A stretch of DNA of 32,000 nt from Nitratidesulfovibrio vulgaris str. Hildenborough (GCF_000195755.1 NC_005863.1:60001-92000); one strand, 5' to 3'; shown: positions 4,738 to 28,332, numbered from the stretch's first letter. Notes: generated from the sequence alone by a model not told the origin. Program-made: numbers and translations.

Positions 4738-4828
4738 GGGGGCGTCGTGTCCGCACGGCGAGATACCGGGGCCCGGTACTGTACCCGGCGGCATCGCCGG
4801 GTGGTGTGCCGCCCGATGGCAGGGGGCC

Positions 4829-4900
4829 GACAGCCATGGTGACAGACATGGCGACAGGCATGATGACAGCCATGGCGGCGGACATGACAGTAGGCATGGC
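4829..4900. repeat. Degenerate 12-nt tandem repeat x6 (GACAGNCATGGY) between the two acetyltransferase genes
   Basis: The units are GACAGCCATGGT, GACAGACATGGC, GACAGGCATGAT, GACAGCCATGGC, GGCGGACATGAC and AGTAGGCATGGC. Confidence 0.85.
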
Positions 4901-4966
4901 GAAAGGCGCGAGGGACAGGGCGCGAAGGCCCGCCGGCGCAGCCGACCCGGGAGGAGGAGACGTGCA

Positions 4967-5575: not shown

Positions 5576-6972
5576 GACCGCACGTCATGCAGCTCATCTT
5601 CAGGCTGGCCCCCGGAGGGGCCGAACGTCTGGCCCTCACCACCCTCGACAAGGCGGGAAGCATGATTCGCGGGTCGGTGTGCGGGCTTTTCGGGCACACG
5701 GGGCCGCTGGTGGCTGAACTCGAGCAGCGGCGCATACCGTGGTTCGGGCTGGACGTCATCGGACGCAGCAGACTGCCGGGCATCATGCGGCTGGCGGCGT
5801 TGCTGCGAAGGCAGCGGGTGGACGTGCTGCACGTGCAGGCGGCCTACCTGCTGCAATGGGCCGCGCCTGCGGCGTGGCTCACCGGCACGCGGCTGGTGTA
5901 CACCGAGCACTCTTCGCACACCTTCGAGACGCAACCGCGCATGGCGCGCCTTGTGCGGTGGATGGCCCCCTTCCTTGGCGGCATGTCGTGCGTCACCGAA
6001 CGCCTGCGCCGTTACATGACCGACCGGATGGGCATCGCCCCGCACCGGGTGCGGCTCATCCGCAACGGCGTGGACGTGGAACGCTTCTCGCCCCACGGCC
6101 CGGTGGCCCCCCTGCCGGACGGGTGGGCCCATGCCGCCGCCCCGGCCTCTGCCGACCATGGCGACCATGGCGACGGGGCCGGAGATGCCGCCAGCACTGG
6201 CCCCGCGGCCCCTGCGCGCCGTCCGGACGGGGCCGCCAGTGGCGACAGTGGCGACAGGGTCGTCATCGGCAACGTGGCCCGCTTCTGCGAGGCCAAGGAC
6301 CACCCCGGCCTGCTGCGCGCCTTCCACGACGTGCAGTCCACCCATCCCGCGGCCCGTCTGCTGCTGGTGGGCGACGGCGAGACCCGCCCGCAGGCCGAGG
6401 CCCTGCGCGACGCCCTCGCCCTTGGCGGCACCGTGCACTTCGCCGGAACGCGGCAGGACGTGCCCGCCCTGTTGCGGGCCATGACGGTGTTCGTGCTCTC
6501 GTCGCGGCATGAGGGGATGCCCGTGGCCGTGCTCGAAGCCATGGCCTGCGGTGTTCCGGTGGTGACCACCGACGTGGGCGGCATCGGTGAACTGGTGCGC
6601 GACGGCGAGACGGCCCGCATCGTGCCCCCCGGCGACCCGCAGGCCCTTGCCGACGCCCTGCGCTGGATGCTCGACCACCCCGCAGAACGCATGGCCATGC
6701 GCGACCGCGCCCTTGCCATGGTGCGCGCGCGGTGCGGGCATGATGTCATGGTGCGTGGCTATCTCGACCTGTATGGCGTCGCCGATGCGTCTTCCTTCGC
6801 GCTGCCCCGCACGGGCTACGCCACCGTCTCGCCCGCGTCCGCGTCCGTTTCCGCATCCCGCATATCCGAACCCGCCCCCCGTACATCCGAATCCACATCC
6901 CGTACGTCAGAATCCACACCCCGTACATCCGGCCCGACGGCCCCATCCCCAGACCGGAGGAATCGCCCGTGA
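5572..6972 (+). CDS. GT4-family glycosyltransferase with an internal low-complexity insertion and a repeat tail
   Basis: ATG 5572 overlaps the upstream stop (ATGA). The N-terminus is MQLIFRLAPGGAERL. The C-terminal half carries SSRHEGMPVAVLEAMACGVPVVTTDVGGIGELVRDGETARIVPPGD. Confidence 0.85.
   Translation: MRPHVMQLIFRLAPGGAERLALTTLDKAGSMIRGSVCGLFGHTGPLVAELEQRRIPWFGLDVIGRSRLPGIMRLAALLRRQRVDVLHVQAAYLLQWAAPAAWLTGTRLVYTEHSSHTFETQPRMARLVRWMAPFLGGMSCVTERLRRYMTDRMGIAPHRVRLIRNGVDVERFSPHGPVAPLPDGWAHAAAPASADHGDHGDGAGDAASTGPAAPARRPDGAASGDSGDRVVIGNVARFCEAKDHPGLLRAFHDVQSTHPAARLLLVGDGETRPQAEALRDALALGGTVHFAGTRQDVPALLRAMTVFVLSSRHEGMPVAVLEAMACGVPVVTTDVGGIGELVRDGETARIVPPGDPQALADALRWMLDHPAERMAMRDRALAMVRARCGHDVMVRGYLDLYGVADASSFALPRTGYATVSPASASVSASRISEPAPRTSESTSRTSESTPRTSGPTAPSPDRRNRP
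6877..6939. repeat. 21-nt tandem repeat x3, encodes PRTSEST/SRTSEST/PRTSGPT at the C-terminus of the second GT4 gene
   Basis: A codon-by-codon reading of 6877-6939 shows the three units. Confidence 0.85.
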
Positions 6973-7922
6973 CCCTAGCCGCCACCTTCAGGCAGCAGCC
7001 GCTGCACCTTCTGCCCGTCATCGCCATGTTCGCGGTGACGTACCATGCCATCGTCATGCGCATGGTGGGCGACTGGAACTTCGACCCCAACTATTCGCAC
7101 GGCTTTCTCGTGCCGTGTCTCGCGCTGTGGTTCGCGTGGATGCGCTGGCCCGAGTTGCGCGAGGCCGAGGTGCGGCCCTCGGCGTGGGGGCTTGGCCTGC
7201 TGGCTGCCGGTCTCTGTCTGCTGGTGCTCGGGTCTGTGCTCATCGAACTCTTCACCTCGCGCGCCTCGCTGGTGGTGCTGATGATGGGCACGGTGCTCTT
7301 CCTCTACGGGCGCGATGCCTTTCGCATCCTGCTGTTCCCGCTGGCGTACCTGCTGTTCATGATACCGCTGCCGTACACCGTCTACGACGCCCTCGCCCTG
7401 CCGCTGAAGGGGCTCGTCTCCTTCGCTGCCACGGGGGGCATCAAGCTTCTGGGGCTGCCCGTGCTGCGTGAGGGCAATGTCATCATCTTTCCCAACATCA
7501 CGCTGGAGGTGGTGGATGCGTGCAGCGGGCTGCGTTCCATCATGAGCCTTGCGGCACTGGGCACGGCCTTCGCCTTTCTCTTCCTGCCCGCCGGGTGGCG
7601 ACGCTGGACGCTGGTGCTCGCCACCGTACCCATCGCCGTGGCCACCAACACGTTGCGGGTCTTCGTCACCGGGGTGCTGTCGTGGTACATCGGCAAGGAC
7701 GCCGCCAGAGGTTTCTTCCATGATTTCGAAGGGCTCGTGGTGTTCGCGGTGGCCATGGCGCTGACGGCGGCGCTCGGCTTCGTGCTCGCCCGCGTGGGCA
7801 GGGCCTCCGCCAGACCGGACGCCAGACCGGACGCTGGGCCGGACGCTGGGCCGGACGCGGGGCCGGACGCTGGGCCCGGAACAGGTACGGGCGGCACGGG
7901 AGGAGGCGCACATGTGGGCTAG
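6969..7922 (+). CDS. xrtA: Exosortase (EpsH family; XrtA subtype inferred from context)
   Basis: The GTG 6969 start lies 8 nt after GGAGG (6956-6960) and overlaps the upstream stop. Exosortase hallmarks are present: DPNYSHGFLVP near the N-terminus, the catalytic-Cys motif LEVVDACSGLRSIMS, NTLRVF, and about 8 TM helices. The subtype is inferred from the adjacent EpsI, PrsR/PrsK, FemAB-like and PLP-decarboxylase genes. Confidence 0.9.
   Translation: MTLAATFRQQPLHLLPVIAMFAVTYHAIVMRMVGDWNFDPNYSHGFLVPCLALWFAWMRWPELREAEVRPSAWGLGLLAAGLCLLVLGSVLIELFTSRASLVVLMMGTVLFLYGRDAFRILLFPLAYLLFMIPLPYTVYDALALPLKGLVSFAATGGIKLLGLPVLREGNVIIFPNITLEVVDACSGLRSIMSLAALGTAFAFLFLPAGWRRWTLVLATVPIAVATNTLRVFVTGVLSWYIGKDAARGFFHDFEGLVVFAVAMALTAALGFVLARVGRASARPDARPDAGPDAGPDAGPDAGPGTGTGGTGGGAHVG
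7809..7880. repeat. 12-nt tandem repeat x6 (GCNNGRCCGGAC), encodes (A-R/G-P-D)n at the exosortase C-terminus
   Basis: I indexed the units at 7809, 7821, 7833, 7845, 7857 and 7869. Confidence 0.95.
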
Positions 7923-8532
7923 GGTTCTCATCATCGTCGCGTTCCTCGCCGTGGGGGCCTATTTCGGGCAGGGCCGCGTGGAGTCCGCCGTGCTGACGCA
8001 GCGCGCGCTGGACGACTTCCCGGCGTCCGTGGGGCCATGGCGCAGTGCAGGGCAGGTCTTCTTCGACGGCAGGACGCTGTCGGTGCTGCGCCCCACCGAC
8101 TACCTCTACCGCCTCTACACCGACGGCGAGCACCGCATCGGCCTGTACGTGGGTTTCCACGGGGGCGGCGAGGGCGCAGGGCCCATCCATTCGCCGCGCA
8201 ACTGCCTGCCGAGTTCGGGGTGGGCGATGCTGGACGAGACCCGACGCGACCTTCAGACCCCGCAGGGCCCGGTGCGCCTCGTGCGGGCCACCTTCGCCAA
8301 GGGCGACGAGGGCAGCGTGTACTACTACTGGTATCAGGTCAGGGGCGCGACCATGGCGGGCGACCTCGAACTGAAGCTGGCAGAATTGCGGAACGCCTTC
8401 CTGCATGCACGGCGCGACGCCGCGTTCATCAGGCTCGATGTGCCGCTGGCGCAGGCCGCAGGCGCGGACGAGGCGGTGGCGGACTTCGTGACCCGGCTGT
8501 ACCCGCTGCTGCTGGACTACCTGCCCCGCTAG
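7912..8532 (+). CDS. epsI: EpsI-family exosortase-associated protein
   Basis: ATG 7912 follows GGGAGGAGG and overlaps the exosortase gene by 11 nt. It has an N-terminal signal anchor (ARVLIIVAFLAVGAYF). The motifs LRPTDYLYRLY, IGLYVGFH...IHSPRNCLPSSGW and YYYWYQVRG are typical of EpsI. Confidence 0.85.
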   Translation: MWARVLIIVAFLAVGAYFGQGRVESAVLTQRALDDFPASVGPWRSAGQVFFDGRTLSVLRPTDYLYRLYTDGEHRIGLYVGFHGGGEGAGPIHSPRNCLPSSGWAMLDETRRDLQTPQGPVRLVRATFAKGDEGSVYYYWYQVRGATMAGDLELKLAELRNAFLHARRDAAFIRLDVPLAQAAGADEAVADFVTRLYPLLLDYLPR

Positions 8533-8686
8533 GGCGGGGCGCGCGGCGGACGGCGATGCGAGGACACGACATGCGGGCGCGACGCGGAAGACGCCATGTG
8601 AAAGGCACGATGTGCCCGACGGGACAGGGAACGCGCGACGGGAACTGCGGGACGCAACGACAGGACGCAGGACGCAAGGAGAAGCC

Positions 8687-10117
8687 ATGCCGGGGCTGTT
8701 GATTGTCGAAGACAACGAGGATGTACGCAGGCAACTGCGATGGGGGCTTGCGAAAGAACCCTACGACCTGCATCTGGCGGGGTCGGTGGACGAGGCGCTT
8801 GCCCTGCAACGTGAGCACGCCCCGGCGGTGGTGACGCTCGACCTCGGCCTGCCGCCGGACGCGGAGGGCGCGTCGGAGGGCTTCAGGGGGCTTGCGGCGC
8901 TTCTCGACCACGACCCGCGCACCAAGGTCATCGTGGTCACCGGGCATCACGACATGGAGAACGCCCTTCGCGCCATCGAAGGCGGGGCGTACGACTTCTG
9001 CCAGAAGCCCGCCGACCTCGAGATGCTCAAGGTGATCATCAGCCGCGCCTTCTTCCTGCATGGCCTGCAGGGGGGCGGCGCCATGGCGTCCGCATCGGGT
9101 ATGGCGTCGGCATCGGGTGGTGCCTCCGCCCCGGACGCCGTTTCAGGCGCGGGTGCCGGGGGGGGCAAGCCCGACGACGGCTGGCAGGGCATCGTGGGGC
9201 GGTGTCCGTCCATGCGGGCGGTGTTCGAGACCGTCGCCAAGGTCGCGGTCACCGGCGCCCCGGTGCTGGTCACCGGCGAATCGGGCACAGGCAAGGAACT
9301 GGTGGCTAGGGCCATCCACGCCCTCGGGCCGCGCTGCACCCGCACCTTCGTCGCCATCAACTGCGGGGCCATCCCCGACAACCTGCTCGAGGCCGAGTTC
9401 TTCGGCTACGAGAAGGGTGCGTTCACCGGGGCCACGCAACGGGTGCAGGGCAAGGTGGAATACGCCGACGGCGGCACGCTGTTCCTCGACGAGATAGGCG
9501 AGTTGCCCGCCAACCTTCAGGTGAAGCTGCTGCGCTTCCTGCAGGAGAAGGTCATCCAGCGGGTGGGCGGACGCAAGGACATCGCGGTGGATGCGCGCAT
9601 CGTCGCGGCAACCAACCGCGACATCCAGACCGAGATAGCCAGCGGGCGGTTCCGTGAAGACCTCTACTACCGCATCGGCGTCGTGCCCGTGGCCCTGCCG
9701 CCGCTTCGTGCGCGTGGCGACGACATCCTGCTGCTGGCGCGCCATTTCCTCGAAAGCAGCGCGGGTGAGGGCACCGGTAACATCGTGGGCTTCTCGCCCG
9801 CGGCGGAACAGGCCATGCTGCGATACGCATGGCCCGGCAACGTGCGCGAACTCGAGAACAAGGTGCGGCGCGCCGTCATCTTCGCCAGCGGGCGGCGCAT
9901 CATGCCCGACGACCTCGGCTTCGACGAGACCCCCGCCAAGGCGGCCGCCCCACGACCCGAAGGTTCGCTGCGCGAGGCGCGCAACGCGCTCGAACGCGAC
10001 ATGGTGCTTTCCGCGCTGGACAAGTGCGGCGGCAACATCGTGCAGGCGTCACTGGCCATCGGCGTGAGTCGCCCCACCTTCTACGACCTGTTGCGCAAGC
10101 ACGGCATCGAGGCGTGA
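8687..10117 (+). CDS. prsR: Sigma54-dependent response regulator (PEP-CTERM-box regulator PrsR type)
   Basis: ATG 8687 follows AAGGAGAAG. It has a receiver domain (LLIVEDNEDVR...VVTLDLGLPPD), an AAA+ sigma54-activator core (VLVTGESGTGKELVARAIH, GAFTGA, ESELFGYEKGAF-like EAEFFGYEKGAFTG) and a C-terminal Fis-type HTH. It sits directly downstream of the exosortase and epsI genes. Confidence 0.85.
   Translation: MPGLLIVEDNEDVRRQLRWGLAKEPYDLHLAGSVDEALALQREHAPAVVTLDLGLPPDAEGASEGFRGLAALLDHDPRTKVIVVTGHHDMENALRAIEGGAYDFCQKPADLEMLKVIISRAFFLHGLQGGGAMASASGMASASGGASAPDAVSGAGAGGGKPDDGWQGIVGRCPSMRAVFETVAKVAVTGAPVLVTGESGTGKELVARAIHALGPRCTRTFVAINCGAIPDNLLEAEFFGYEKGAFTGATQRVQGKVEYADGGTLFLDEIGELPANLQVKLLRFLQEKVIQRVGGRKDIAVDARIVAATNRDIQTEIASGRFREDLYYRIGVVPVALPPLRARGDDILLLARHFLESSAGEGTGNIVGFSPAAEQAMLRYAWPGNVRELENKVRRAVIFASGRRIMPDDLGFDETPAKAAAPRPEGSLREARNALERDMVLSALDKCGGNIVQASLAIGVSRPTFYDLLRKHGIEA
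9083..9118. repeat. 18-nt tandem repeat x2 (ATGGCGTCSGCATCGGGT) in the PrsR receiver/AAA+ linker
   Basis: It encodes MASASG twice within a Gly/Ala/Ser-rich linker. Confidence 0.9.
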
Positions 10118-10260
10118 CCCGTAACGCGAGGCCGCCACGGGCCGGGGCGTCGCCCCGTTGCCACGATGCGGCGAAGGACATCCCATGATGTATGCCCCGC
10201 ACCGTCCATCGCATGAAGACCGCAGGCAGGTCGCGCACTCCGGCTGCCCCTTGCGCCCGA

Positions 10261-10344
10261 CTCCACGTCCGGCTTCACGTCCGGCCGCGGTTATGGCCCC
10301 GGTTATGGCCCCGGATATCACCGCGGATATCACCGCGGGCATGG
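10261..10344. repeat. Seven consecutive 12-nt units arranged as three different doublets plus one, upstream of or at the N-terminus of the BNR protein
   Basis: The units are CTCCACGTCCGG/CTTCACGTCCGG, then CCGCGGTTATGG/CCCCGGTTATGG, then CCCCGGATATCA/CCGCGGATATCA, then CCGCGGGCATGG. Confidence 0.9.
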
Positions 10345-10424
10345 CCCGTCGTGTCTCGCCCGGTGCCTCCACGGGGGGCTCCCCCGATGTCTCTCCTGAA
10401 GTCTCCCGCGGCGTCTCCCTTGGC

Positions 10425-12893
10425 ATGGGGCGCCGCCTCTTCTGCGGCATCACCCGTGGCGTTGCCCGATGCCGTCGGGCGGTGCCGGTGTGCGCCGTCT
10501 TCGCCTTCCTTCTTGCGGGCCTTCTGTCCGGCATGGTCGCAGGGCCACTCCCCGGCATGGCGGGCGACGCCCTCGCCGCGGGCACGCAGGGCACTGCGCC
10601 GGGAGGGCCCGCTTCGGGGCAGGGCGCGTCAGGGTCAGGCCGGGGAGACCTCTTCACCCCCCTGGGCCCCGGCGGGGGCGGCGGCATGTACGTGCCCTCC
10701 ATGTCGCCCTACGAACAGGGGCTGGTGTTCGTGGCGACGGACATGGGCGGGGTGTTCCGTTCCGAAGACGACGGCGCGCGCTGGCGTCTCATCCCTTTCG
10801 GCAACGGGCTGCGGTACACGCAGCTTTCGCCGCCCATGGTGCACTTTCCGCGGCATATCGCGTGGGTCACCGAGCGCAGCAGGGTCACCATGAGCCATGA
10901 CCGTGGCGCAAGCTGGACGACGCAGCCCCCCGGCCCGTGGGGGAAGTCGCCGGTGACGCGGCTGGCAGGCATATCCGGCGCTGGAACGGGCGGTGCGACA
11001 GCCTCCCGGCCCTACGGGGCGCCCCCCTCCGGGGCGGACGGCCCCGACGTGCTGTTCGCGGGCACCAAGGATGGCGTGTGGCGCACCACCCTCGTCGGGG
11101 GAAGGCCCGACGGCTGGCAGCGCGTGCTGGACGGCGGCGGCAGCGAAATCGTGTCGCTTGACGGTATGCTGTACACCTTCACGGGCGACGGCACGTTCAT
11201 GACCAGCCGCGACCGTGGGGTGACGTGGGGCGTGACGGCGGCCGCCGCTTCGGTGGGCGGGCGTGTCGCCTCGTTCACAGGGGCCACCGATGGCAGCCGG
11301 ACCGTACTGCTGGCCTCGGTGGAGGGCAGGGGCCTCATCCGTTCGGTGGATGGCGGGCGCGACTGGGCCACGGTGAAGCCCGGTTTCGAGAACGAACGCC
11401 ACCTGACCATGGCCCCCGGACAGACCCGCGTGGCCTACGCCGCCCAGACCGGCGGGGTGGCGCACAAGCAGCTTCTGCGTTCCACGGACGGCGGCGTCAC
11501 GTGGGAGAAGACGTTCCGCATGGCCATGCCGTGGGACAAGGTCACCTTCGGCACCAACGTGGAACGGTCATGGGTGCAGACCAGCCTCGGCTGGGGCTAC
11601 TACCTCACCGCCAACCCGCTGGCGGTGCACCCGACGGGTGACGGCTTCCTGCTGCTGGCGACACAGGGCGACCTCTACGTCAGCCGCGACGGCGGCGACT
11701 CGTGGCGGCAGGCCATGTCTGCCGTGCTTCCGCCCGACACGGGTGCGGGCGGTGCAGGCGCGTCGCCCCGCCTTGCCACCATCGGCCTCGAGGTGACCAG
11801 CGCATGGGGCTACCTGTTCGACCCCCACGACCCGCAGCGCACCTACATCGCCTACACCGACATCGGCTTCGCGCGTTCCTTGGACAGGGGGCGTTCGTGG
11901 CAGTGGTCCGCCAAGGGGTCGCCGTGGACGAACACCTTCTACGACGTGGTGGTCGACCCCGCCGTGCCGGGGCGTCTGTATGCCGCCGCCAGCATGAGGC
12001 ACGACATCCCGCACGGCACGTCGCTTTCGCCCACCAACATGGGCTACGGCGTCCACGCCAAGGGCGGGGTGGTGGTGAGCGACGATCACGGGGCCTCGTG
12101 GCGCGTGCCCTACGACGCCAAGGGCGCACCGGACGCGCTGCCGAGCATGACATGCACCACCATCGCCCTCGACGAGACGTCGCCCGCCGAGGCGCGGGTG
12201 CTCTACGCCGGGTTCTTCGGCGAGCGCGACGATGACAGGGCCGGGGTCTACAGGTCGGAGGACGGCGGCAGGACATGGCGCGACGTGAGCCTCGGCCTCG
12301 GGTCACCGGGCAACCTGCACGTGTACCGCGTGCGCATCCACCCCGTCACCCGCGAACTCTACTGCCTCATCACCGGCATCAGCGGCAAGGGCACCAACTT
12401 CACCGTCCCCGGCGGGCTGTGGAAGTCGGCCGACGGCGGCGCCACATGGCAGGACCTCACGGCGGGCAGCCCGCTGGCGTGGTGGGCCACGAACCTCGCC
12501 TTCGACCCCGCAGACCCGCGCACCATCTACGTCTCCGCAGCCACGGCGCCGGGGCACTGGCTCGAGGGCGGCATCTACAGGACGACCGACGGCGGGCGCG
12601 GCTGGAAGCAGGTGCTCAGCGACAAGGGCATCCAGAAGGCCGTCGGGGGCGACAGCTTCGACCACACCATGGCCGTAGCGGTGCATCCCGACGACCCGAA
12701 GCTGGTCTACGCGGGCACCACGCTGCACGGGCTGCTGTACAGCCGCGACAGGGGCGAAAGCTGGCAGGCGTATGCGGCCTTTCCCTTCGCCGCCGTCACG
12801 GGCGTCACCTTCGACCCCGCCGACCGCACGCGGATGATCGTCACCACCTTCGGCGGGGGCGTCTGGTCCGGCCCCGTGTTGCCGGAGAACTAG
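10425..12893 (+). CDS. BNR/Asp-box repeat beta-propeller protein (sialidase / GH74 / sortilin-like), probably exported
   Basis: Twelve S/T-x-D-x-G-x-x-W Asp-boxes are present (SEDDGARW, SHDRGASW, SRDRGVTW, SVDGGRDW, STDGGVTW, SRDGGDSW, SLDRGRSW, SDDHGASW, SEDGGRTW, SADGGATW, TTDGGRGW, SRDRGESW). The start is uncertain. ATG 10425 places a signal-like segment (RRAVPVCAVFAFLLAGLLSGMVAG) near the N-terminus. The ORF is open from 10158, and 10341 is also possible. Confidence 0.7.
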   Translation: MGRRLFCGITRGVARCRRAVPVCAVFAFLLAGLLSGMVAGPLPGMAGDALAAGTQGTAPGGPASGQGASGSGRGDLFTPLGPGGGGGMYVPSMSPYEQGLVFVATDMGGVFRSEDDGARWRLIPFGNGLRYTQLSPPMVHFPRHIAWVTERSRVTMSHDRGASWTTQPPGPWGKSPVTRLAGISGAGTGGATASRPYGAPPSGADGPDVLFAGTKDGVWRTTLVGGRPDGWQRVLDGGGSEIVSLDGMLYTFTGDGTFMTSRDRGVTWGVTAAAASVGGRVASFTGATDGSRTVLLASVEGRGLIRSVDGGRDWATVKPGFENERHLTMAPGQTRVAYAAQTGGVAHKQLLRSTDGGVTWEKTFRMAMPWDKVTFGTNVERSWVQTSLGWGYYLTANPLAVHPTGDGFLLLATQGDLYVSRDGGDSWRQAMSAVLPPDTGAGGAGASPRLATIGLEVTSAWGYLFDPHDPQRTYIAYTDIGFARSLDRGRSWQWSAKGSPWTNTFYDVVVDPAVPGRLYAAASMRHDIPHGTSLSPTNMGYGVHAKGGVVVSDDHGASWRVPYDAKGAPDALPSMTCTTIALDETSPAEARVLYAGFFGERDDDRAGVYRSEDGGRTWRDVSLGLGSPGNLHVYRVRIHPVTRELYCLITGISGKGTNFTVPGGLWKSADGGATWQDLTAGSPLAWWATNLAFDPADPRTIYVSAATAPGHWLEGGIYRTTDGGRGWKQVLSDKGIQKAVGGDSFDHTMAVAVHPDDPKLVYAGTTLHGLLYSRDRGESWQAYAAFPFAAVTGVTFDPADRTRMIVTTFGGGVWSGPVLPEN

Positions 12894-12937
12894 CATGCAG
12901 CGCACGGACAGCCATACGACACAGCCGCAGGAGGCGC

Positions 12938-14314: not shown

Positions 14315-14331
14315 CGGGCGGTGTACGGGGC

Positions 14332-14367
14332 GGACTGCGAGACGGGCTGCGAGACGGGCTGCGGGGC
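14332..14367. repeat. 12-nt tandem repeat x3 (GGRCTGCGRGRC) in the ATP-grasp 1 / AT3 intergenic region
   Basis: The units are GGACTGCGAGAC, GGGCTGCGAGAC and GGGCTGCGGGGC. They begin 18 nt after the ATP-grasp 1 stop codon. Confidence 0.85.
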
Positions 14368-14452
14368 ATGACCGGCCCCCGGACGGACGGGCGAGGTCAC
14401 GGCGACGATGCGGAACGGATGACGACAACGGAATGAACCGCAGGAGAAGGCC

Positions 14453-17187: not shown

Positions 17188-18479
17188 GCGTCGTCCTCGT
17201 CCTCGGTGCCGAGACCATGCTGGCGCGCGTGGTCAGCCGCAGCCTGCATCGCGCGGGTTTCACCGTGCTGGCGGCCTCCTCCACGCCGTGGCCCATCTGC
17301 GCCTATTCGCGCTATGTGCGGCGCACCTTCACCCACGCCGACCCGAAGCACGACGAGTCGCGGTTCATCGACGACATCCGCCGCATCTGCGAGACGCAGG
17401 GCGTGGACGTGCTGTTGCCCATCCTGCGCGAGTGCGCCGTCATCGCACGACATCGTCACCTCTTCGGCCCCGGCGTGCGGATGCTACTTGGCGACGCCGC
17501 GACGCTGGCCGACTTCGGCGACAAGTACCGTACCTACGAGGTGGCGCGCGACGCGGGGCTTGCCGTGCCCGAGTACCGCAGGGCTGCCGACCTCGCTGCC
17601 GACCCGGCGGCCCTTGCGGCCTTTCCGTGCCCGTGCCTCGCCAAGCCCGTGTGGGGGTGGGGCGGCTACGGGATGCACGAATGCGCCAGCCCGCAGGAGG
17701 TCGCCGCCCGCATCACGGCCATGACCGACCGACAACGCGAAGACTACTTCATGCAACAGCGGATGCCGGGTGACGTGGTGTGCGTGGCCATGCTGTGCGA
17801 GGCGGGGCAGATGCACGCGTGCGACACCTTCCGCATCGTGTCCTCGTACCCGAGGCGGCACGGGCAGTCGACACTGCGCGAGTCGGTGCGGGCCGACGCC
17901 GCCGTGGACGCGCTGCGGACGCTGCTTGCCCATGTGGGCTGGACGGGCCCGTGTCAGGCCGACTTCATCATCGACCCGGTCACGGGCACGCCGTACCTCA
18001 TCGACATCAACGCCCGGTACTGGAATTCGCTGATTCAGAGCACCGCCCGCGGGGTGGACTTTCCCGTCATGCACTGCCGGATGGCGCTGGGCATGGGTGA
18101 TGCGGGCGGCGCAGGCGGCGCGGGAGATGTTCCGGGCACCGGCGCGGCTGGCGTGTCGCCGGGTGTGTCGCCGGGCGTGCCGCGGGGTGTGCCGGACATG
18201 AGTGCGGGCATGTGCGCGGACATGGACACGGGGGTGAGCACGGCATGGTTCAGTCGCGCCCTGCGCGGCGACCCGGCCCTGCTGCTGCGGCGTCTCTTCT
18301 CGCGCCCGCAGGGTCAGGCCGCACGGGGCATCGCCGCCTTCGACGACTGGGACGTCCGCGACCCGCTGCCCTTCTTCGCATGGCCCTTGCGGCATCTGCT
18401 TGGGCGCATCGCCTCGCGGGTGGCCCCGCATCACTACGCAACCGATGGAACAGGACGAGGTGAAGCATGTCGCTCATGA
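17184..18479 (+). CDS. ATP-grasp family ligase, paralog 2
   Basis: ATG 17184 overlaps the upstream stop (ATGA). It shares blocks with paralog 1: VCVAML, GQ[GS]TLR[DE]SV, W[T]G[VP]C[EQ]ADFI, YLID[VI]N[PA]R[FY]W[GN]S and ARGVDFP. Confidence 0.8.
   Translation: MSVVLVLGAETMLARVVSRSLHRAGFTVLAASSTPWPICAYSRYVRRTFTHADPKHDESRFIDDIRRICETQGVDVLLPILRECAVIARHRHLFGPGVRMLLGDAATLADFGDKYRTYEVARDAGLAVPEYRRAADLAADPAALAAFPCPCLAKPVWGWGGYGMHECASPQEVAARITAMTDRQREDYFMQQRMPGDVVCVAMLCEAGQMHACDTFRIVSSYPRRHGQSTLRESVRADAAVDALRTLLAHVGWTGPCQADFIIDPVTGTPYLIDINARYWNSLIQSTARGVDFPVMHCRMALGMGDAGGAGGAGDVPGTGAAGVSPGVSPGVPRGVPDMSAGMCADMDTGVSTAWFSRALRGDPALLLRRLFSRPQGQAARGIAAFDDWDVRDPLPFFAWPLRHLLGRIASRVAPHHYATDGTGRGEACRS
18150..18197. 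repeat. 12-nt tandem repeat x4 (GGYGTGYCGCCG-like), encodes GVSPGVSPGVPRGVPD in ATP-grasp 2
   Basis: I indexed the units at 18150, 18162, 18174 and 18186. Confidence 0.9.
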
Positions 18480-20092
18480 GCCACATGATGCAACTGACGG
18501 GCAGCCTGCTGCGACGCGCTTCGTACAGACGGCAGATGCGGCAGGGCAGGCCGCCCCTCTCGCTGTGGGGCCTCGCCGACGAGGACGGCGTTCTCACCGT
18601 GGGCGGGGCCTCCGCCGTGGCGCTGGCAGCCGCGTATGGCACGCCGCTTCTGGTGGTGGACGAGAAGGCCCTGCGGGCCAAGGTGGCAGAGGTGCGGGCG
18701 GTGCTCGACGACGAGTTGCCCGGTGCCCGGCTGACCTATTCGTACAAGACCAACTGCATCCCCGGCATCCTGCGCGTGCTGCACGACGCGGGCGTGGGGG
18801 CCGAGGCCATCTCGGCCTATGAGTACTGGCTGGCACAGAGCCTTGGCGTACCGGGCGAACAGCTCATCTACAACGGTGTGGACAAGTCGCCCGAGAGCCT
18901 CGCAATGGCGGTGGCGCACGGCGCGCTCATCAACATCGACAACCGCGACGAGGTGGACGCGGTGCTGGCGACGGCCCGCGCACAGGGGCGGGTGGCCCGC
19001 ATCGGCCTGCGGCTTGGGCTCAACCGCAGCGCGCAATTCGGTCTCGACCCCGACAGCGCGGAAGGTGACGGCGACATCGCCCATGTCGTGGCCCGCTGCA
19101 AGGCCCACCCGGAGCACGCCTCGCTGGAGGCGCTGCACTTCAACGTCACCAGCAACGCACGGCACAGCGGCTACCATGTGCGCTGCCTCGCCCTCGCCCT
19201 CGACGTGATGCGCACCCTCGCCCGCGTCCACGGGGTGCACATACGGCTTCTCGACGTGGGCGGCGGCTTCGGCGTGCAGACCAGCAAGAACATGTCCGGC
19301 GTGGAATACGGCCTGTACCGACTGTTCGGGGTGGCACCGGGCGGGGCGTGGCTCGACCCGTTCCAGGACTTCCGCCTCTACATCCGCGACATGGCTGCGC
19401 TGCTGACCTCGTACTGCCGCGACAATGCCCTGCCGCAGCCCGTGGTCTGCCTCGAACCGGGCAGGCTGCTCACCAGCGGGGCCGAACTGCTGCTGACCCG
19501 CGTGAAGGCCGTCAAGGAACGGCCCGGGGCGGAACCCTTCGCCATCACCGACGGGGGGCGTCTCTCGCAGGCCTACCCCTGCGACTTCGAATGGCACGAG
19601 GCCTTTCTCGCCAACGACCTGCGCAGGCCGCTTGCACGCGCCTACACGGTGACGGGCAGGGTCTGCACGCGTTCCGACTGGCTGTACCGGGGCAAGGTCA
19701 TGCCTGAACTCGCTTCCGGTGACATCCTCGCCGTGCTGGACGCCGGGGCCTATTTCTCGTCGTACGCCATGAACTTCGCCTTCCCGCGTGCCGCCGTGGT
19801 GGGCGTGGAGGACGGGCGGGCGCGTGTGATGCGCCACCGCGAGACCTTCCGCCACCTGACGGCCATGGATGAGGTGCAACTGGTCGATGTGAAGCTGGAC
19901 GGAGTGGCACTGGACGACGAGGCGTCGGCAGGGGCAGGGCCCCACGAGACGGGATGCGTCGGGATGTCCGGGGCTCTTGGGGCATCCGGGGCCGGGGGGC
20001 TGCCGGGTATGCCCGCCGCACCGTCACCGGGCACGCCGTCATCCCCGCCGAGAGCGCATGGCACGACGGGCACGCGAGGGGGCGGCGCATGA
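18467..20092 (+). CDS. PLP-dependent decarboxylase, Orn/DAP/Arg decarboxylase fold (exosortase-system-associated type)
   Basis: ATG 18467 lies 6 nt after GAGG and overlaps the upstream gene by 13 nt. The sequence reads GTPLLVVDEKALRAKV...LTYSYKTNCIPGILRVLHDAGVGAEAISAYEY...LIYNGVDKS, then HFNVTS...LDVGGGFG, then GRVCTRSDWL...GDILAVLDAGAY. It has a low-complexity C-terminal extension. Confidence 0.85.
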   Translation: MSLMSHMMQLTGSLLRRASYRRQMRQGRPPLSLWGLADEDGVLTVGGASAVALAAAYGTPLLVVDEKALRAKVAEVRAVLDDELPGARLTYSYKTNCIPGILRVLHDAGVGAEAISAYEYWLAQSLGVPGEQLIYNGVDKSPESLAMAVAHGALINIDNRDEVDAVLATARAQGRVARIGLRLGLNRSAQFGLDPDSAEGDGDIAHVVARCKAHPEHASLEALHFNVTSNARHSGYHVRCLALALDVMRTLARVHGVHIRLLDVGGGFGVQTSKNMSGVEYGLYRLFGVAPGGAWLDPFQDFRLYIRDMAALLTSYCRDNALPQPVVCLEPGRLLTSGAELLLTRVKAVKERPGAEPFAITDGGRLSQAYPCDFEWHEAFLANDLRRPLARAYTVTGRVCTRSDWLYRGKVMPELASGDILAVLDAGAYFSSYAMNFAFPRAAVVGVEDGRARVMRHRETFRHLTAMDEVQLVDVKLDGVALDDEASAGAGPHETGCVGMSGALGASGAGGLPGMPAAPSPGTPSSPPRAHGTTGTRGGGA

Positions 20093-21096
20093 CAGGTCAC
20101 GCCCTGCATATCGCCCCCTGCGGGCCGTCACGCCACGCCGAGTGGGATGCCTTCGTCGAGGCGCATCCCGCCCGCCCGCTGTTCCATTCACGGCGGTGGC
20201 TGTCGTTGCTCGCCCGCCATCAGGGCGTGCGTCTCGACCTCCATTGCATCGAGGCGCAAGGCCGCGTGGTGGGGCTGCTGCCCATGTTCAGCCGGGGCTA
20301 CGGCGTCATCCGGGTGCATTCGTCGCCCTATGTGGTGACGGATACGCCCTACCTCGGCCCGCTGGTGGACGACGACGTGTCGCCTCATGCCCTGTGGGCC
20401 GCGCTTCTCGACCATGCGCGGCACAGCGGCATGGACTTCGTGCGCCTGTTCACCCGTGTGGGTATGGCGTGCCCCCCCGTGGACGGCACGCCCGCCGGGG
20501 TGCAGCGCAAGACCACGCATGTGCTCGACCTCACGCCGGGGGAGGAGGCCCTCTGGAACGGTCTGGAGGGGCGCTGCCGCACGGCGGTGCGCAAGGCCGC
20601 CAAGGAGGGCGTGACCGTGGAACCCATGGCGGACGATGCCGCCCTCGAACGGTTCGTGGACATGCTCGAAGGCGTCTACGCCCGACAGGGGCTGACCTCG
20701 CCCAACCCCCGCGCCTTCTACCGCGACGTGTGGCGCACCTTCGGCGGGCGCGAGGTCGTGGGGCTGACGGCGCGGCACGAGGGACGCGACATCGCCTCGG
20801 CGCTCTTCGTCATGGACGCGCGCGACGCCTACTACATCAGCGGTGCCTCGGCGGGCGACTGCGGGCGGTTGTCGCCCAACAACATCCTGCAATGGGAGGC
20901 CATACGCCTCGCCCTCGCGCGGGGGGTGGTCAGGTACGACTTCGTGGGGTCCGACATCCCGCGCATCGCACGTTTCAAGGCGAGTTTCGGCGGGCAGCTG
21001 CATGAATACTGGTGCGTCGAGTGCGCGCCATCCCGCGTGGCGCGCTTCATGCGCGCTGCCTACCCGTGGCTCAAACGGCGACTGGGCAGGGTGTGA
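20089..21096 (+). CDS. FemAB-like (GNAT-fold) protein, PEP-CTERM-system-associated type
   Basis: ATG 20089 overlaps the upstream stop (ATGA). The motifs are WDAFVEAHPARPLFHSRRWLSLL, GLLPMF, GRCRTAVRKAAKEGVTVE, and YDFVGSDIPRIARFKASFGGQL at the C-terminus. Confidence 0.8.
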   Translation: MTGHALHIAPCGPSRHAEWDAFVEAHPARPLFHSRRWLSLLARHQGVRLDLHCIEAQGRVVGLLPMFSRGYGVIRVHSSPYVVTDTPYLGPLVDDDVSPHALWAALLDHARHSGMDFVRLFTRVGMACPPVDGTPAGVQRKTTHVLDLTPGEEALWNGLEGRCRTAVRKAAKEGVTVEPMADDAALERFVDMLEGVYARQGLTSPNPRAFYRDVWRTFGGREVVGLTARHEGRDIASALFVMDARDAYYISGASAGDCGRLSPNNILQWEAIRLALARGVVRYDFVGSDIPRIARFKASFGGQLHEYWCVECAPSRVARFMRAAYPWLKRRLGRV

Positions 21097-21163
21097 TGAC
21101 GGCACGGCACGACGCAGAGAGACCCCGGCACCAGCGCCGGGGAAGGGAAACGGAGGCGGCAGC

Positions 21164-22885
21164 ATGATAGGATATGCGCGCATGATGTTGCACAGGCTGA
21201 GCAACAGCGCGTGCCATGCGAGGATGCGCGAGCATCTCGCACTGGAACGGCTGCCGCACGACGAGTTGCGGCAGAGGCAGTTCTGGGTCGCGGTCACGCT
21301 GCTCAAGCACGCCTACGAGACGGTGCCCCATTACCGTGCGCTCATGGACGGGGCGGGGCTGCATCCCGACGCGGTACGCAGCTTCGCGGACTTCGCGGCG
21401 CTGCCCGTGCTGCGCCGGTGGCCCGCCGGGGCACCTGCGCCCGACCTCGTGTCCAAGGCCCTGCCCCGCAAGGCGCTGGCGGCGCTGCAAGGGCAGTCTG
21501 CCGAGAACGGGGGCTGCCTGCCCGCGCCCATCCTGCGCGACCGCGCCGCCCGCGACGAGACGCAGGCCAACTGGCTGCTGTGCCTCACCTTCGCGGGATG
21601 GACACAGGCGGACATGGTGGTGCGGCTGTATGCCGCGTCGGGCGACGAGTCGGGCGACCTGCTGCACCCCGGCGTGCGCGAATGGCTGGCGGGGACCCTC
21701 GCCGTGGACGGCTGCACCTACGCACCGGACGCCGTGGCGCAGTGGGTGAAGGCCATCCGCCGTTGCGGCAGGGCCTATGTGCTGGGCAATGCTCGCGTCA
21801 TGGCGGACATGGCGGACTTCATGCGCGAGGGCGGCATCCGGCTTGGCAACGTGCGCGGGGCCGTGGTGTCGGGCGGCAGGGGCGACCACCACCCGTATGC
21901 GAACGGCCTTCCGGATGCTGGCGGCCTGCATATCGGGGTGCCCGGCCAGACCGACCAGACCGGCCAGACCGGCCAGACCGGCCACGCCGTGCACACGGGG
22001 CCTGCCGACGGTGACGGGACGGGGCGGCAGCGCATCGCCGAGGCCTTCGGCTGCCCGGTGTTCGACCTGTACGGCTGCGCCGAGGTGCCCTGCATCGCCA
22101 TGCAATGCGGCGCGGGCAACCTGCACCTGCTGACGCACTCGGCCCATGTGGCGTTCGAACCCGATGCCGCGTGCGGCCCGCCACGCCTCATCGTCACCGA
22201 CCTCAACAACAGGGCCATGCCCGTGCTGCGCTTCGACACCGGCGACCACGGCGTGCCCGTGGACGGCCCGTGCCCCTGCGGGCGCGGTTTCCCGCTGATG
22301 CGGCGCGTGCCCGCCACCGGGACGTGGTTTCAGACGGTGGAAGGGCGGTTCATCCCCGGCGACGCGTTCGCCCGTGGTCTTGCCGCCCGTCTGGACGCAC
22401 TTCTGGCACTCGTCCCCGGCGAGAGTGCTGCCGGAGGGCACCCCGACGGGGGTGCGGCGCGGCACGGCGACGGTGATGGAGAGGGCGGAGGCAACGGAAG
22501 CGATAACCGTGGCACCGGGCATCATGCGGGACATGACACCGCGCATGGCGGCAGCCATCAGATGGGGCCTCACATGGGGCGTGGCGACAGCCGGCACCCC
22601 GCGCACAGGGGCGGGCGTGGCGCATACCGCGCATGGCCCGCCTTCAGGCAGGTGGTCCCCGGCGTCGTCCACGTCGTCCTTCCGGCGGAGTGCGCCATGG
22701 GTGCGACCCCCTTCGGGGCCCTCGTGCGTGACACCGTGCGCGAGGTCGTGCGCGACGCCGCGCAAGGGGCCGGGGCCGCAGACGCCTCGGCGCTGGCGAC
22801 CCTGACGTTCGTGCAGGCGACGACTCCAGCGGGGCGCGACGCTTCGCACGGGGGCGGACCGCCGCAAGGAGGGCACAGGCCATGA
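21164..22885 (+). CDS. Phenylacetate-CoA ligase (PaaK/CapK)-like adenylate-forming enzyme with two insertions
   Basis: ATG 21164 follows CGGAGGCGG. The sequence LERLPHDELRQRQFWVAVTLLKHAYETVPHYRALMDGAGLHPDAVRSFADFAALPVLRR matches the PaaK-family N-terminus. FDLYGCAEVPCIAMQC...HLL appears later. Confidence 0.75.
   Translation: MIGYARMMLHRLSNSACHARMREHLALERLPHDELRQRQFWVAVTLLKHAYETVPHYRALMDGAGLHPDAVRSFADFAALPVLRRWPAGAPAPDLVSKALPRKALAALQGQSAENGGCLPAPILRDRAARDETQANWLLCLTFAGWTQADMVVRLYAASGDESGDLLHPGVREWLAGTLAVDGCTYAPDAVAQWVKAIRRCGRAYVLGNARVMADMADFMREGGIRLGNVRGAVVSGGRGDHHPYANGLPDAGGLHIGVPGQTDQTGQTGQTGHAVHTGPADGDGTGRQRIAEAFGCPVFDLYGCAEVPCIAMQCGAGNLHLLTHSAHVAFEPDAACGPPRLIVTDLNNRAMPVLRFDTGDHGVPVDGPCPCGRGFPLMRRVPATGTWFQTVEGRFIPGDAFARGLAARLDALLALVPGESAAGGHPDGGAARHGDGDGEGGGNGSDNRGTGHHAGHDTAHGGSHQMGPHMGRGDSRHPAHRGGRGAYRAWPAFRQVVPGVVHVVLPAECAMGATPFGALVRDTVREVVRDAAQGAGAADASALATLTFVQATTPAGRDASHGGGPPQGGHRP
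21947..21982. repeat. 9-nt tandem repeat x4 (CAGACCGRC), encodes QTD(QTG)3 in the PaaK-like gene
   Basis: I indexed the units at 21947, 21956, 21965 and 21974. Confidence 0.95.
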
Positions 22886-24918
22886 CCATCGTCCTCGCGT
22901 GTCTCGTGGTGGTGCTGACGGTGGCGGGCACGGCCCGCGCCCTGCACGAGTCGGGGCGGGCGGCTGCGCCGCGCGTGGTGGCCCCGGTGCTCACGGCCGT
23001 TCTCGTGGTGGCCGAGACCTATCTCGCCGTGGCCACCGAGGTCGCGCCGTGGACGTTGCAGGCGACGCTCATCCTTCAGGCGCTGCTGGCCCCGGCGTGG
23101 GCCACGTTCGCCCTGTGCTACGGGCGCGAGTGCTCATGGCGCACGCTGCCGCGCAGCGGCAGGCTGCTGCTGGCCCTGTCGCTGTCGCCCGTGCTCATGG
23201 CGGCCGTGCTGCCACCCGATCAGTTGTTCTATCTTGCCGACTTCACGGCCGAACGAGTCTTCTACCTCGAACCGCGCGCCTTCTTCCTCTACCTGCAACT
23301 GCTGCTGTGCCTGCTGCTGTCGGCGGGCAACCTCGAGACCACGCTCCGCAACAGCCGCCACAGCCAGCGCTGGCGCATCAAGCTGGCCCTCGTCGGCATG
23401 GGGGCGGTGCTCGCGGCGCTCTGCCTGCAATACGGGCAGGGGCTGGTCATCCGCACCCTCGACCTCGGCTATGTGGGGCTGCGCAACGGGGCCGTGGCGC
23501 TTGGCTTCGCGCTGTTCCTCTTCGCCGAGACGCGCCGTGGCAGCGACAAGGTGCACATCGCGCGGCGTCTGGCCTTCCGGTCCGTGGTCGCCATCATCGC
23601 GGGCGGGTACCTGCTTGGACTCGGCGTGCTGCGCGAGGGCGTGCGTCTGGCGGGGCCTGATTTCGAACGGCACTTCGCGCTGGCCATCGTCTTCGCCGTC
23701 GTCCTCGCGGGGTTGATCATCCTGCTGTCGGACCACCTGCGCAGGCGGTTCAGCATCTGGATGCACCGCACCTTCTACAACGAGAAGTACGACTACCGCA
23801 CACAGTGGATCAACTTCACCGACATGCTCTCCCATGCCCGCAACACCCGCGACTTCGTGGACGTGATGCTGGTGGGCCTGTGCGATGCCTTCGGCTTCGT
23901 GGGGGCTGCCTTCGTGCCCGCCGACTTCGAACACCCCGGACAGGCCCGCGACGCCGTGGTCTACGAGATGGAACCGCTGCCGCCCACGCTGCCCGCCACG
24001 GCCTTCGGCGGACTGCTGGTCTACGAGGGTGGCCCGTGCACGCTGGACACGGTGGCGGGGCTCTTGAGCGAAGACGCGCTCGAAGCCCTGCAAGACGCCG
24101 GGGTGGGCCTCGTGCTGCCGGTGCGCACCGTGGAGGGCTGCGAGGGGGTGGTGCTACTGGCACGGCCCATCGACACCCGCGAGGAGCACGACCTTGAGGA
24201 CTTCGAACTCCTCGAGGCCATGGGACGCCAGATAGCCCTGTGCGTGCGCAGCTTCCGCCTTGGCGACGAACTGGCGGTGGCGCGCGAGATGGAGGCGCTG
24301 GGCCGCTTCGCCGCGCTGGTGATGCACGACCTCAAGAATCAGGTCTACGCGCTCTCGCTGCTGGTGGACAACGCGCGGCTGTACATCGCCGAACCCGAGT
24401 TCCAGCGCGACCTTGTGGAGACGCTCACCAACAGCGTCAGCAACATGCGCAACCTCATCTCGCAACTGACGCGCCTGCCGGGGCGCGAGAACCTGCATCT
24501 CGCCCCTGTCGACCTCATGGAACTGGCACGCGAGGCGTGCGCCAGCCTGCCGGGGGCGGACATCCGCTTCGAGGGCGCGGGGGTGCGGGCCGCGGTCGAT
24601 GCGGAGCAGGTGTCGAAGGTGCTCGTGAACCTGTGCCTCAACGCCATCGAGGCCGACCCCGCGGGGCCGGTGGTGGTGCGGGTGGGTGTGAACGGCGGCC
24701 CGCTCATCAAGGTCGAGGACTCGGCGGGCGGCATCGACCCCGCCCTGTTGCGCGACGGACTGTTCAAGCCCTTCAGATCGACCAAGAAGCGCGGCATGGG
24801 CATCGGCCTGTACCATTGCCGCAAGATCGTCGAGGCGCACGGTGGCACCATCGGCGTGGAGTCGCAGCCCGGACGCGGCAGCACCTTCACCGTGCAGTTC
24901 GCCCGGAGGGAGGGCTGA
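22882..24918 (+). CDS. prsK: PEP-CTERM-system histidine kinase (PrsK type): polytopic sensor, GAF, HisKA and HATPase domains
   Basis: ATG 22882 overlaps the upstream stop (ATGA) and is preceded by GGAGGG. It has about 8 N-terminal TM helices, a GAF-like middle region, the H-box FAALVMHDLKNQV, the N-box LVNLCLNAIEA, G1 VEDSAGGID and G2 GMGIGLYHCRKIVEAHGG. Confidence 0.85.
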   Translation: MTIVLACLVVVLTVAGTARALHESGRAAAPRVVAPVLTAVLVVAETYLAVATEVAPWTLQATLILQALLAPAWATFALCYGRECSWRTLPRSGRLLLALSLSPVLMAAVLPPDQLFYLADFTAERVFYLEPRAFFLYLQLLLCLLLSAGNLETTLRNSRHSQRWRIKLALVGMGAVLAALCLQYGQGLVIRTLDLGYVGLRNGAVALGFALFLFAETRRGSDKVHIARRLAFRSVVAIIAGGYLLGLGVLREGVRLAGPDFERHFALAIVFAVVLAGLIILLSDHLRRRFSIWMHRTFYNEKYDYRTQWINFTDMLSHARNTRDFVDVMLVGLCDAFGFVGAAFVPADFEHPGQARDAVVYEMEPLPPTLPATAFGGLLVYEGGPCTLDTVAGLLSEDALEALQDAGVGLVLPVRTVEGCEGVVLLARPIDTREEHDLEDFELLEAMGRQIALCVRSFRLGDELAVAREMEALGRFAALVMHDLKNQVYALSLLVDNARLYIAEPEFQRDLVETLTNSVSNMRNLISQLTRLPGRENLHLAPVDLMELAREACASLPGADIRFEGAGVRAAVDAEQVSKVLVNLCLNAIEADPAGPVVVRVGVNGGPLIKVEDSAGGIDPALLRDGLFKPFRSTKKRGMGIGLYHCRKIVEAHGGTIGVESQPGRGSTFTVQFARREG

Positions 24919-25371
24919 CGGTTCGGTGAAGGATGACGTGACGGGAGCGTAAGGGCGGCGCGTAGCCGGGGCATATGACTGGCAGGGCATGGCAGCGGGA
25001 CGTGCCAGCGGGACGTGACAGGTGCGCGTGTCCGGCGGGGGTGTCCGGCGGGTGGAGGGAGACGGAGGTGGTGACGGGCGCGGCGAAGGCGCGACATCTT
25101 CGGCCTTGCGAGGGGCGTCGTGCCGTGTCCGGGTCGACCCGGGGCGATGCAGGCGTCACCCGGCACTCGTCACCCGGCGGCGTTCGGCGGTGCGTACCCG
25201 GCGGGCCATGTCGGCCGCGTCCGAGCGGGGGCCACCCGCTGGCGTACGGTCGGGAGTCACCGAAAGGCGTGCCGGGAGTGCAAGGGCGGCATCGCGCGGC
25301 GCGGTGCGTCGTCACCGGAGGGCATCGGGCATCATCGTACAACACGGCTTTGCGACGACGAGGGGATGATC

Positions 25372-28281: not shown

Positions 28282-28332
28282 GGGTGTAACCTCCTTGCTA
28301 CGTAGATGCAGGGCGTCTGGAAAACGATGCCG

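Follow-up and report, generated by a model that had tools for sequence, protein, structure and literature searches.

Gene order around the PrsK/PrsR regulator pair in the exosortase locus of the Nitratidesulfovibrio vulgaris megaplasmid

A previously described PrsK/PrsR locus

The PEP-CTERM/EpsH (XrtA) system was defined by Haft et al. (2006, PMC1569441), who also named PrsK, PrsR and PrsT. Their Table 1 lists, for Desulfovibrio vulgaris Hildenborough, DVU_A0055 as EpsH, DVU_A0056 as EpsI, DVU_A0065 as PrsK, DVU_A0057 as PrsR and DVU_A0036 as PrsT, and in their survey 12 of 13 genomes had the kinase gene in tandem with the regulator gene, the two being "always at least close" (PMC1569441). The PrsR regulon was mapped by Rajeev et al. 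(2011), who described a ten-gene operon as a prediction (PMC3333781) and, by DNA-affinity-purified chip (DAP-chip) and electrophoretic mobility shift assay (EMSA), found that PrsR binds five predicted PEP-CTERM genes (PMC3333781). The regulon was later refined by Kazakov et al. (2015) to DVUA0030, DVUA0032-0031, DVUA0036-0041, DVUA0089, DVU0132-0133 and DVU1152 (PMC4641369), and overproduction of DVUA0066, the patatin gene just after prsK, was reported to bring biofilm down 5.6-fold (PMC6170446). Here we analyze the stretch of megaplasmid pDV1 that carries this locus (Nitratidesulfovibrio vulgaris str. Hildenborough, GCF_000195755.1, NC_005863.1:60001-92000; 32,000 nucleotides, "the window," to which all positions refer), in which prsR and prsK are separated by a block of enzyme genes.

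For this model sulfate reducer, the genes and their assignment to PrsK and PrsR, as well as the operon and the regulon of PrsR, are therefore already published, and the locus is among the founding, experimentally studied examples of PrsK/PrsR. A comparison with relatives adds that the split reflects a change of gene order derived within one Nitratidesulfovibrio clade, with no insertion, and that in Desulfovibrionaceae the exosortase and regulator core is regularly accompanied by the putative tailoring block. The plasmid pDV1 affects biofilm formation. The separated layout had been put forward as novel in an initial annotation made from the sequence; it is not common, but it was catalogued in the 2006 table, and the claim to novelty fails.

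Gene listing combined the analysis of guanine-plus-cytosine (GC) content by codon position, open reading frame (ORF) listing and profile scans. Plus-strand genes form an unbroken run from position 1 to 26784 at approximately 70% GC. The exosortase (6969-7922), EpsI (7912-8532) and PrsR (8687-10117, or starting at 8612) genes are contiguous, while PrsK (22882-24918) is found downstream on the same strand, with 12,764 bp and exactly eight plus-strand genes separating its start codon from the stop codon of prsR. The last of these genes, a ligase gene, overlaps prsK through an ATGA at 22882-22885. The contiguous exosortase core, the 12.7-kb interval of eight genes and the overlap had all been pointed out in the initial annotation, and each was recovered where it had been placed. 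Compared with the system as described in 2006, this is the same locus, with a sigma-54 regulator over PEP-CTERM genes and a large exopolysaccharide (EPS) gene array; in place of the tandem pair of 12 of 13 genomes, the two regulator genes here are eight genes (12.8 kb) apart in the order R...K, and the exosortase is generic by the present NCBIfam cutoff.

A region of 17,950 bp is 100% identical to pDEVAL01 of Nitratidesulfovibrio (Desulfovibrio) vulgaris RCH1 (NC_017311.1) and 98.4% identical to the DP4 plasmid, and the PrsK protein is also present on CP002298.1. RefSeq already carries the names xrt, EpsI and prsK at the locus, and upstream, in the same unidirectional array, it annotates genes for a PrsT-like tetratricopeptide repeat protein, an XrtA-system glycosyltransferase, export, chain length and an autokinase, together with ATPase, outer-membrane, deacetylase and FemAB genes and three PEP-CTERM proteins.

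Gene order in relatives and origin of the split

We consider it likely that this is an XrtA-type PEP-CTERM/exosortase EPS locus of the megaplasmid pDV1/pDEVAL01 with PrsK/PrsR as its single cognate pair, that its gene order was rearranged in the ancestor of the clade, and that the block is an ancestral EPS-tailoring module. The evidence on gene order comes from PrsK and HGSNAT homologues located in contigs, from a scan of one genome per GTDB species, and from tblastn with all window proteins. Two layouts were recovered, named here by their genes (lig, the PaaK/CapK-like ligase; BNR, the beta-propeller protein; grasp1 and grasp2, the ATP-grasp ligases; AT3 and HGSNAT, the membrane acyltransferases). 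Type A, with the order GT4-xrt-epsI-prsR-BNR-grasp1-AT3-HGSNAT-grasp2-decarboxylase-FemAB-lig-prsK-patatin, occurs in the window, in N. liaohensis (L012) and in loci L007 and L008, at PrsK identities of at least 75%. Type B has the order GT4-lig-xrt-epsI-prsK-prsR-(patatin in L011)-BNR-grasp1-(AT3-HGSNAT-grasp2)-decarboxylase-(FemAB), with PrsK identities of 67% in L011, 65% in L004/L006, 58% in L009, 50% in L010/L013 and about 41% in L014 and L016. D. alaskensis G20, where Dde_0847 to Dde_0850 are xrt, epsI, prsK and prsR (Haft Table 1, PMC1569441), also has the type B order. In a neighbor-joining tree of PrsK, the type A sequences form one clade nested inside type B.

The type B loci of Desulfovibrionaceae (L004/L006 from Nitratidesulfovibrio sp., L011, L009 and L010/L013) have largely the same gene set as the window, at 35 to 79% identity, but their prsK lies between epsI and prsR, their ligase gene lies upstream of xrt, and the regulator pair is undivided. 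The lig and patatin genes are orthologous between both layouts (35 to 61% and 78 to 79% identity, respectively, by tblastn), with a divergence that parallels that of PrsK. The ligase orthologue sits between the GT4 gene and xrt in type B, and the patatin gene, which accompanies prsK in type A, comes directly after prsR in L011. A GT4 match that extended into the type B ligase gene was discarded as low-complexity sequence; the DNA homology ends at about position 6780.

Wherever the sequence of a Desulfovibrionaceae relative continues beyond prsR, the next gene is BNR. In L014 and L016 it is the only block gene detected there, while further block genes are also present at 50 to 67% PrsK identity. 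As relatives with an undivided pair have BNR and other block genes directly downstream of prsR, and as the divergence of these genes parallels that of PrsK, the block appears to be an ancestral part of the locus, which favors the option, left open in the initial annotation, that it is integral to this exosortase system. Its content has not been constant, with L009 and L010 having only BNR, one ATP-grasp and the decarboxylase, and with AT3, HGSNAT, the second ATP-grasp and FemAB being found only in Nitratidesulfovibrio; judging from this gene content, the block has grown over time.

The species-level scan gave 80 PrsK loci, 67 of them with flanks sufficient to judge the position of prsR. In 50 of the 67, prsR is directly downstream of prsK with a gap of no more than 600 bp, always K then R. 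Another 11 have the two genes 1.1 to 2.5 kb apart; ten of these are Nitrospirota with prsR downstream (L047, L050, L052, L054, L056, L057, L063, L065, L066 and L072), and in the eleventh (L073) prsR is 2.3 kb upstream of prsK. The remaining six had no PrsR within the available flanks (2 to 10 kb downstream), and one of these is the type A locus of N. liaohensis. The scan showed the long R...K split in no clade but that of N. vulgaris, which answers the synteny comparison proposed in the initial annotation. The Nitrospirota loci resemble the window in having enzyme genes between the regulator genes on the same strand (a 274-aa protein of the phosphoadenosine phosphosulfate reductase family in L063 and L057, the two loci examined, and, in L057, also a type I phosphodiesterase/nucleotide pyrophosphatase), so small enzyme inserts between K and R do occur elsewhere. 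They differ in having only one or two intervening genes, over 1.1 to 2.5 kb, and the order K then R.

From these layouts, the ancestral order in Desulfovibrionaceae would have been GT4-lig-xrt-epsI-prsK-prsR-(patatin)-BNR-ATP-grasp-...-decarboxylase-(FemAB). A single rearrangement in the common ancestor of the clade formed by N. vulgaris and N. liaohensis would then have left the ligase, prsK and patatin genes behind the block, giving xrt-epsI-prsR-[block]-lig-prsK-patatin. Two tandem copies of order B contain order A as a subsequence, so one tandem duplication (from lig to FemAB) followed by complementary losses would yield it; an alternative route to the same order would be three separate transpositions.

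The regulator pair, the exosortase and transcription

Both regulators were assigned by hidden Markov model (HMM), in agreement with the initial annotation. PrsR (DVU_A0057; plus strand), a sigma-54 enhancer-binding response regulator, scores 585.4 bits on TIGR02915 against a cutoff of 502.6, and over its full length it has the receiver (REC) domain, the sigma-54 AAA+ domain with GAFTGA at aa 244 and the Fis-type helix-turn-helix. The predicted phospho-acceptor is D52, in a VVTLDLGLPP context. A low-complexity, repeat-derived insert in the REC-AAA+ linker (aa ~128 to 160) splits the HMM alignment, and this may explain why RefSeq labels the gene only "sigma 54-interacting transcriptional regulator." PrsK (DVU_A0065; plus strand; prsK in RefSeq) scores 407.2 bits on TIGR02916 (cutoff, 300), with residues 33 to 672 aligned to profile positions 32 to 677 of 679. 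The architecture proposed for it in the initial annotation holds for the polytopic N terminus (about eight hydrophobic 19-mers within aa 1 to 285), for the H-box HDLKN with H482, which is invariant across 23 homologues, and for HATPase_c (71.8 bits); the GAF domain was not found by Pfam at an E value of ≤0.001, although PrsK homologues of greater distance (from P0029 on, at identities of 41% or less) do show it.

PrsK was found at one place on the plasmid, where PEP-CTERM genes are also annotated, and genome-wide Haft Table 1 has a single PrsK (DVU_A0065) and a single PrsR (DVU_A0057) (PMC1569441), so each occurs once alongside the exosortase and PEP-CTERM genes. Over the 72 kb of plasmid annotation inspected there was just one further sigma-54 regulator, a homologue of DVUA0024, and it was rejected as an alternative PrsR, with 270 bits on TIGR02915 (cutoff, 502.6). 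A second partner, which the initial annotation had named as a possible objection, was found neither for PrsK on the plasmid, nor for PrsR in the inspected part of it, nor in the 2006 table. We infer that PrsK and PrsR are the single cognate two-component pair of the locus, with phosphotransfer from PrsK to PrsR. In this model the polytopic membrane kinase would phosphorylate PrsR, and PrsR, an NtrC-type sigma-54 activator, binds in front of the genes for PEP-CTERM proteins and of the operon for PrsT and EPS export. The binding step has published support from DAP-chip and EMSA, including EMSA on DVUA0089 (PMC3333781, PMC4641369). At its own operon, binding of PrsR finds no mention in the portions of the Rajeev 2011 DAP-chip supplements available to us, where DVUA0058, DVUA0065 and DVUA0066 do not appear.

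The exosortase (DVU_A0055; plus strand; "exosortase" in RefSeq) scores 305.3 bits on TIGR02602, well above the cutoff of 105.55, which places it in the eight-TM EpsH family (PF09721), and contains the motifs DPNYSHGFLVP (aa 39 to 49) and DACSGLRS (aa 183 to 190) on which the initial annotation had based the exosortase core. On the XrtA model (TIGR03109) it falls just short, with 200.7 bits against 208, while the type B orthologue of L004 barely passes (210.2 against 208). It is a borderline lineage on the XrtA boundary and not formally XrtA by the curated cutoff, so the core stood and the XrtA label did not. Its C-terminal tail consists of PDAG repeats. EpsI (DVU_A0056; plus strand; annotated in RefSeq) passes TIGR02914, the model proposed for it, with 154.7 bits against 42.8, and its gene overlaps xrt by 11 nt. 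For the exosortase, the XrtA model gives nearly the same score as the N-terminal halves of two fused models, XrtW and XrtD; the C-terminal half of XrtD is matched by EpsI, a separate protein here (118.8 bits).

The regulator pair and the block are predicted to lie probably in one transcript, a claim that rests on short gaps, four 4-nt overlaps, the lack of an intergenic terminator and the published operon prediction (PMC3333781). From prsR to prsK no intergenic gap exceeds 175 bp, and at four junctions the neighboring genes share 4 nt. The terminator scan found no intergenic terminators, its six terminator-like sites all being intragenic and at chance level. A sigma-70 promoter scan gave no promoters, and a sigma-54 promoter search (TGGCAC-N5-TTGC, up to 2 mismatches) gave 38 matches versus 46 expected, with none in the intergenic gaps of the block. 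The ATGA overlap between lig and prsK is specific to N. vulgaris, with gaps of 86 bp in L008 and 172 bp in L007, and because it is not conserved in relatives with the same layout it is weak evidence of functional coupling. The N. vulgaris ligase also has a long C-terminal extension. The patatin gene follows prsK after a gap of 453 bp and is the sole member of DVUA0057-0066 in the differential RNA-seq tables.

The block proteins and the alternative readings

The eight block genes, all on the plus strand, would together form an EPS-tailoring module of two ATP-grasp amide ligases, a decarboxylase, a FemAB/GNAT protein, a CapK/PaaK-type enzyme, two membrane acyltransferases and a secreted BNR propeller. 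The first, a BNR/Sortilin-Vps10-type beta-propeller protein (10293-12893; Pfam PF15902 and BNR), has an N-terminal signal or anchor, scores 144 bits on NF045728 (below the cutoff of 175) and has weak matches to the Protein Data Bank (PDB) structural-genomics entries 3b7f and 7kn8, with weak similarity to GH74 and BNR hydrolases. It may be a glycosidase that acts on EPS or a protein that binds it. Because its C terminus (...GGGVWSGPVLPEN) lacks a PEP-CTERM anchor, it was rejected as a substrate of the exosortase. It is followed by ATP-grasp ligase 1 (12938-14314), which is PRK06849-like (73 bits), with weak PylC-like_N and ATPgrasp_Ter matches and with PF02655 in its orthologues; by the membrane acyltransferase AT3 (Acyl_transf_3; 14453-15838; PF01757, 41.3 bits); by the HGSNAT/DUF1624-type transmembrane acetyltransferase (15835-17187; PF07786, 53.5 bits); and by ATP-grasp ligase 2 (17184-18479; PF02655 and PF02786), for which the PDB sequence search gave a weak structural-genomics match (2pn1).

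Next comes a fold-III decarboxylase dependent on pyridoxal phosphate (PLP), similar to diaminopimelate and ornithine decarboxylases (18467-20092; PF02784 and PF00278). It is below cutoff on lysA (186 bits) and on TIGR03099 (107.6 versus 478 bits), and its PDB relatives include diaminopimelate decarboxylase, D-Orn/D-Lys decarboxylase, N-citrylornithine decarboxylase and BtrK, the last two of which act on already-conjugated amino acids. The FemAB/GNAT (Acetyltransf_6) family protein (20089-21096; PF13480, 75.6 bits; PF02388, 62.9 bits) reaches 76 bits on TIGR03019, below the cutoff of 260. The block closes with the PaaK/CapK-like adenylate-forming ligase (21164-22885), which had no Pfam match and only weak NCBIfam (NF045666, PaaK) and PDB matches to PaaK-like ligases; its L010 orthologue carries PF27533 (CapK_C). 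TIGR03019 (FemAB) and TIGR03099 (PLP decarboxylase) are XrtA-associated families of the same enzyme classes in the same kind of locus, but with scores so far below their cutoffs the block proteins are analogues or distant paralogues and not members. Taking the families together, the likeliest function of the block is to decorate the plasmid-encoded polysaccharide with acetyl groups and with substituents derived from amino acids or amines, with the propeller having a processing or binding role.

Upstream, in the array, RefSeq names an XrtA/PEP-CTERM-associated FemAB protein (the TIGR03019 family name) and a "sugar-transfer associated ATP-grasp" protein (L003 841-1887 and 5021-6337; plasmid 47366-48412 and 51546-52862), so that the whole locus has two FemAB-like and three ATP-grasp genes.

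The initial annotation had also offered the opposite option, that the block is an insertion into the regulatory pair. A horizontally acquired cassette between originally adjacent prsR and prsK genes would give such a separation, as the two are adjacent in 50 of 67 assessable loci and in 12 of 13 genomes of Haft 2006, but we find this highly improbable, as relatives with an intact pair carry genes of this block just downstream of prsR, with identities that track PrsK. The orientation is also wrong for it, as all 50 adjacent loci have K then R and never R then K, and an insertion into this ancestral order would give K-block-R and not the observed R-block-K. GC is uniform across the block, at 0.68 to 0.74 with no compositional break, and neither the gene calls nor the annotation showed mobile-element genes or flanking repeats. 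The block was thus already downstream of prsR before the split, and it was prsK that moved, together with the ligase and patatin genes. A different possibility is that the rearrangement ended the partnership, with PrsK and PrsR each working with other two-component proteins, such as those of the DVU0110 or DVU0804 circuits; the operon that they share would then be a relic. The targets that PrsR has in common with DVU0804, the targets and DNA motif in common with DVU0110, the unconserved lig/prsK coupling and the seemingly separate expression of the patatin gene downstream of prsK would all fit this scenario. We regard it as unlikely nonetheless, as both proteins are above their equivalog cutoffs and single copy, retain the H-box, D52 and GAFTGA, and remain intact in a type A layout that persists across species down to 75% PrsK identity.

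It has also to be considered that the block might build an amine or peptide acceptor on the polysaccharide, onto which the exosortase would transfer PEP-CTERM proteins, by analogy with the role of FemAB in making the acceptor of Gram-positive sortases. Besides the ATP-grasp ligases, the decarboxylase and the FemAB-like protein, the CapK-like adenylating enzyme would take part in such a synthesis. The tight and conserved linkage of the block to xrt-epsI-prsKR in Desulfovibrionaceae would fit, as would the presence of a FemAB-family protein with two amide-forming ATP-grasp ligases and a decarboxylase whose family includes enzymes acting on conjugated amino acids (N-citrylornithine decarboxylase and BtrK), and the existence of analogous XrtA-associated FemAB and decarboxylase families (TIGR03019 and TIGR03099). 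We give this idea a low probability, as AT3, HGSNAT, ATP-grasp 2 and FemAB are absent from L009 and L010, which keep xrt and PrsKR, and as the PrsK loci of Geobacter and Nitrospirota have no matches to block genes in their 10-kb flanks except one weak AT3 and two weak FemAB. If it were true, one transcript with the regulator pair would tie the supply of acceptor to the expression of substrates, and the genetically tractable D. vulgaris would allow testing what exosortases attach proteins to. For the preferred reading, i.e., a rearranged order around an ancestral tailoring module and a single cognate pair, several points count on the other side. No remnants of a duplication were recovered, as tblastn with the type B ligase, xrt, EpsI, PrsK, PrsR, patatin and BNR against the window spacers (8533-8686, 10118-10292, 21097-21163, 24919-25371, 26785-27156 and the GT4 tail) gave only noise, and the PrsK tree carries no support values. 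The predicted single operon has the published prediction as its main support, and the chemistry of the block is read from family membership, with several family scores below the curated cutoffs. As for the pair, no published assay of phosphotransfer from PrsK to PrsR was found in the literature searched, and PrsR shares targets and a binding motif with the chromosomal DVU0110, so that one-to-one signaling is perhaps not strict (PMC4641369).

The gene that follows prsK codes for a patatin-like phospholipase (DVUA0066; 25372-26784, plus strand; PF01734, 99.5 bits). Between 25900 and 26400 its codon-position GC pattern shifts frame for about 400 bp while the ORF stays open, and this part encodes a low-complexity insert rich in G, D, A and R that is missing from the orthologues. 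More generally, the N. vulgaris proteins of the locus are approximately 5 to 45% longer than their orthologues (ligase, 573 versus 425 to 469 aa; patatin, 470 versus 321 to 345; BNR, 866 versus 758 to 785; PrsR, 476 versus 450 to 453). In-frame tandem repeats with periods of 9 to 45 nt are found at the termini or linkers of most genes from the exosortase to the patatin gene and in some upstream genes (3181-3244, 4828-4907, 6850-6931, 7815-7876, 9083-9118, 10283-10346, 15650-15773, 15851-15962, 18153-18191, 21942-21984 and 26310-26348).

A ThiF-family protein may be a further conserved companion of the locus. One of about 970 to 990 aa, of the ThiF-family adenylyltransferase group, adjoins PEP-CTERM genes on the plasmid (L092 9812-12781; plasmid 31811-34780), and a similar one, with FeeM and ThiF Pfam matches and a faint Nitroreductase match, is found just after the block in L010 (19670-22073). 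Last, from about 26900 to 32000 the GC falls abruptly from ~0.70 to 0.51-0.60 and the genes are on the minus strand, coding for an acyltransferase, a 660-aa polytopic membrane protein (DUF3488 in RefSeq), a methyltransferase and a GT2/GtrA fusion. This region forms a second glycan cluster that differs in composition and may have been separately acquired.

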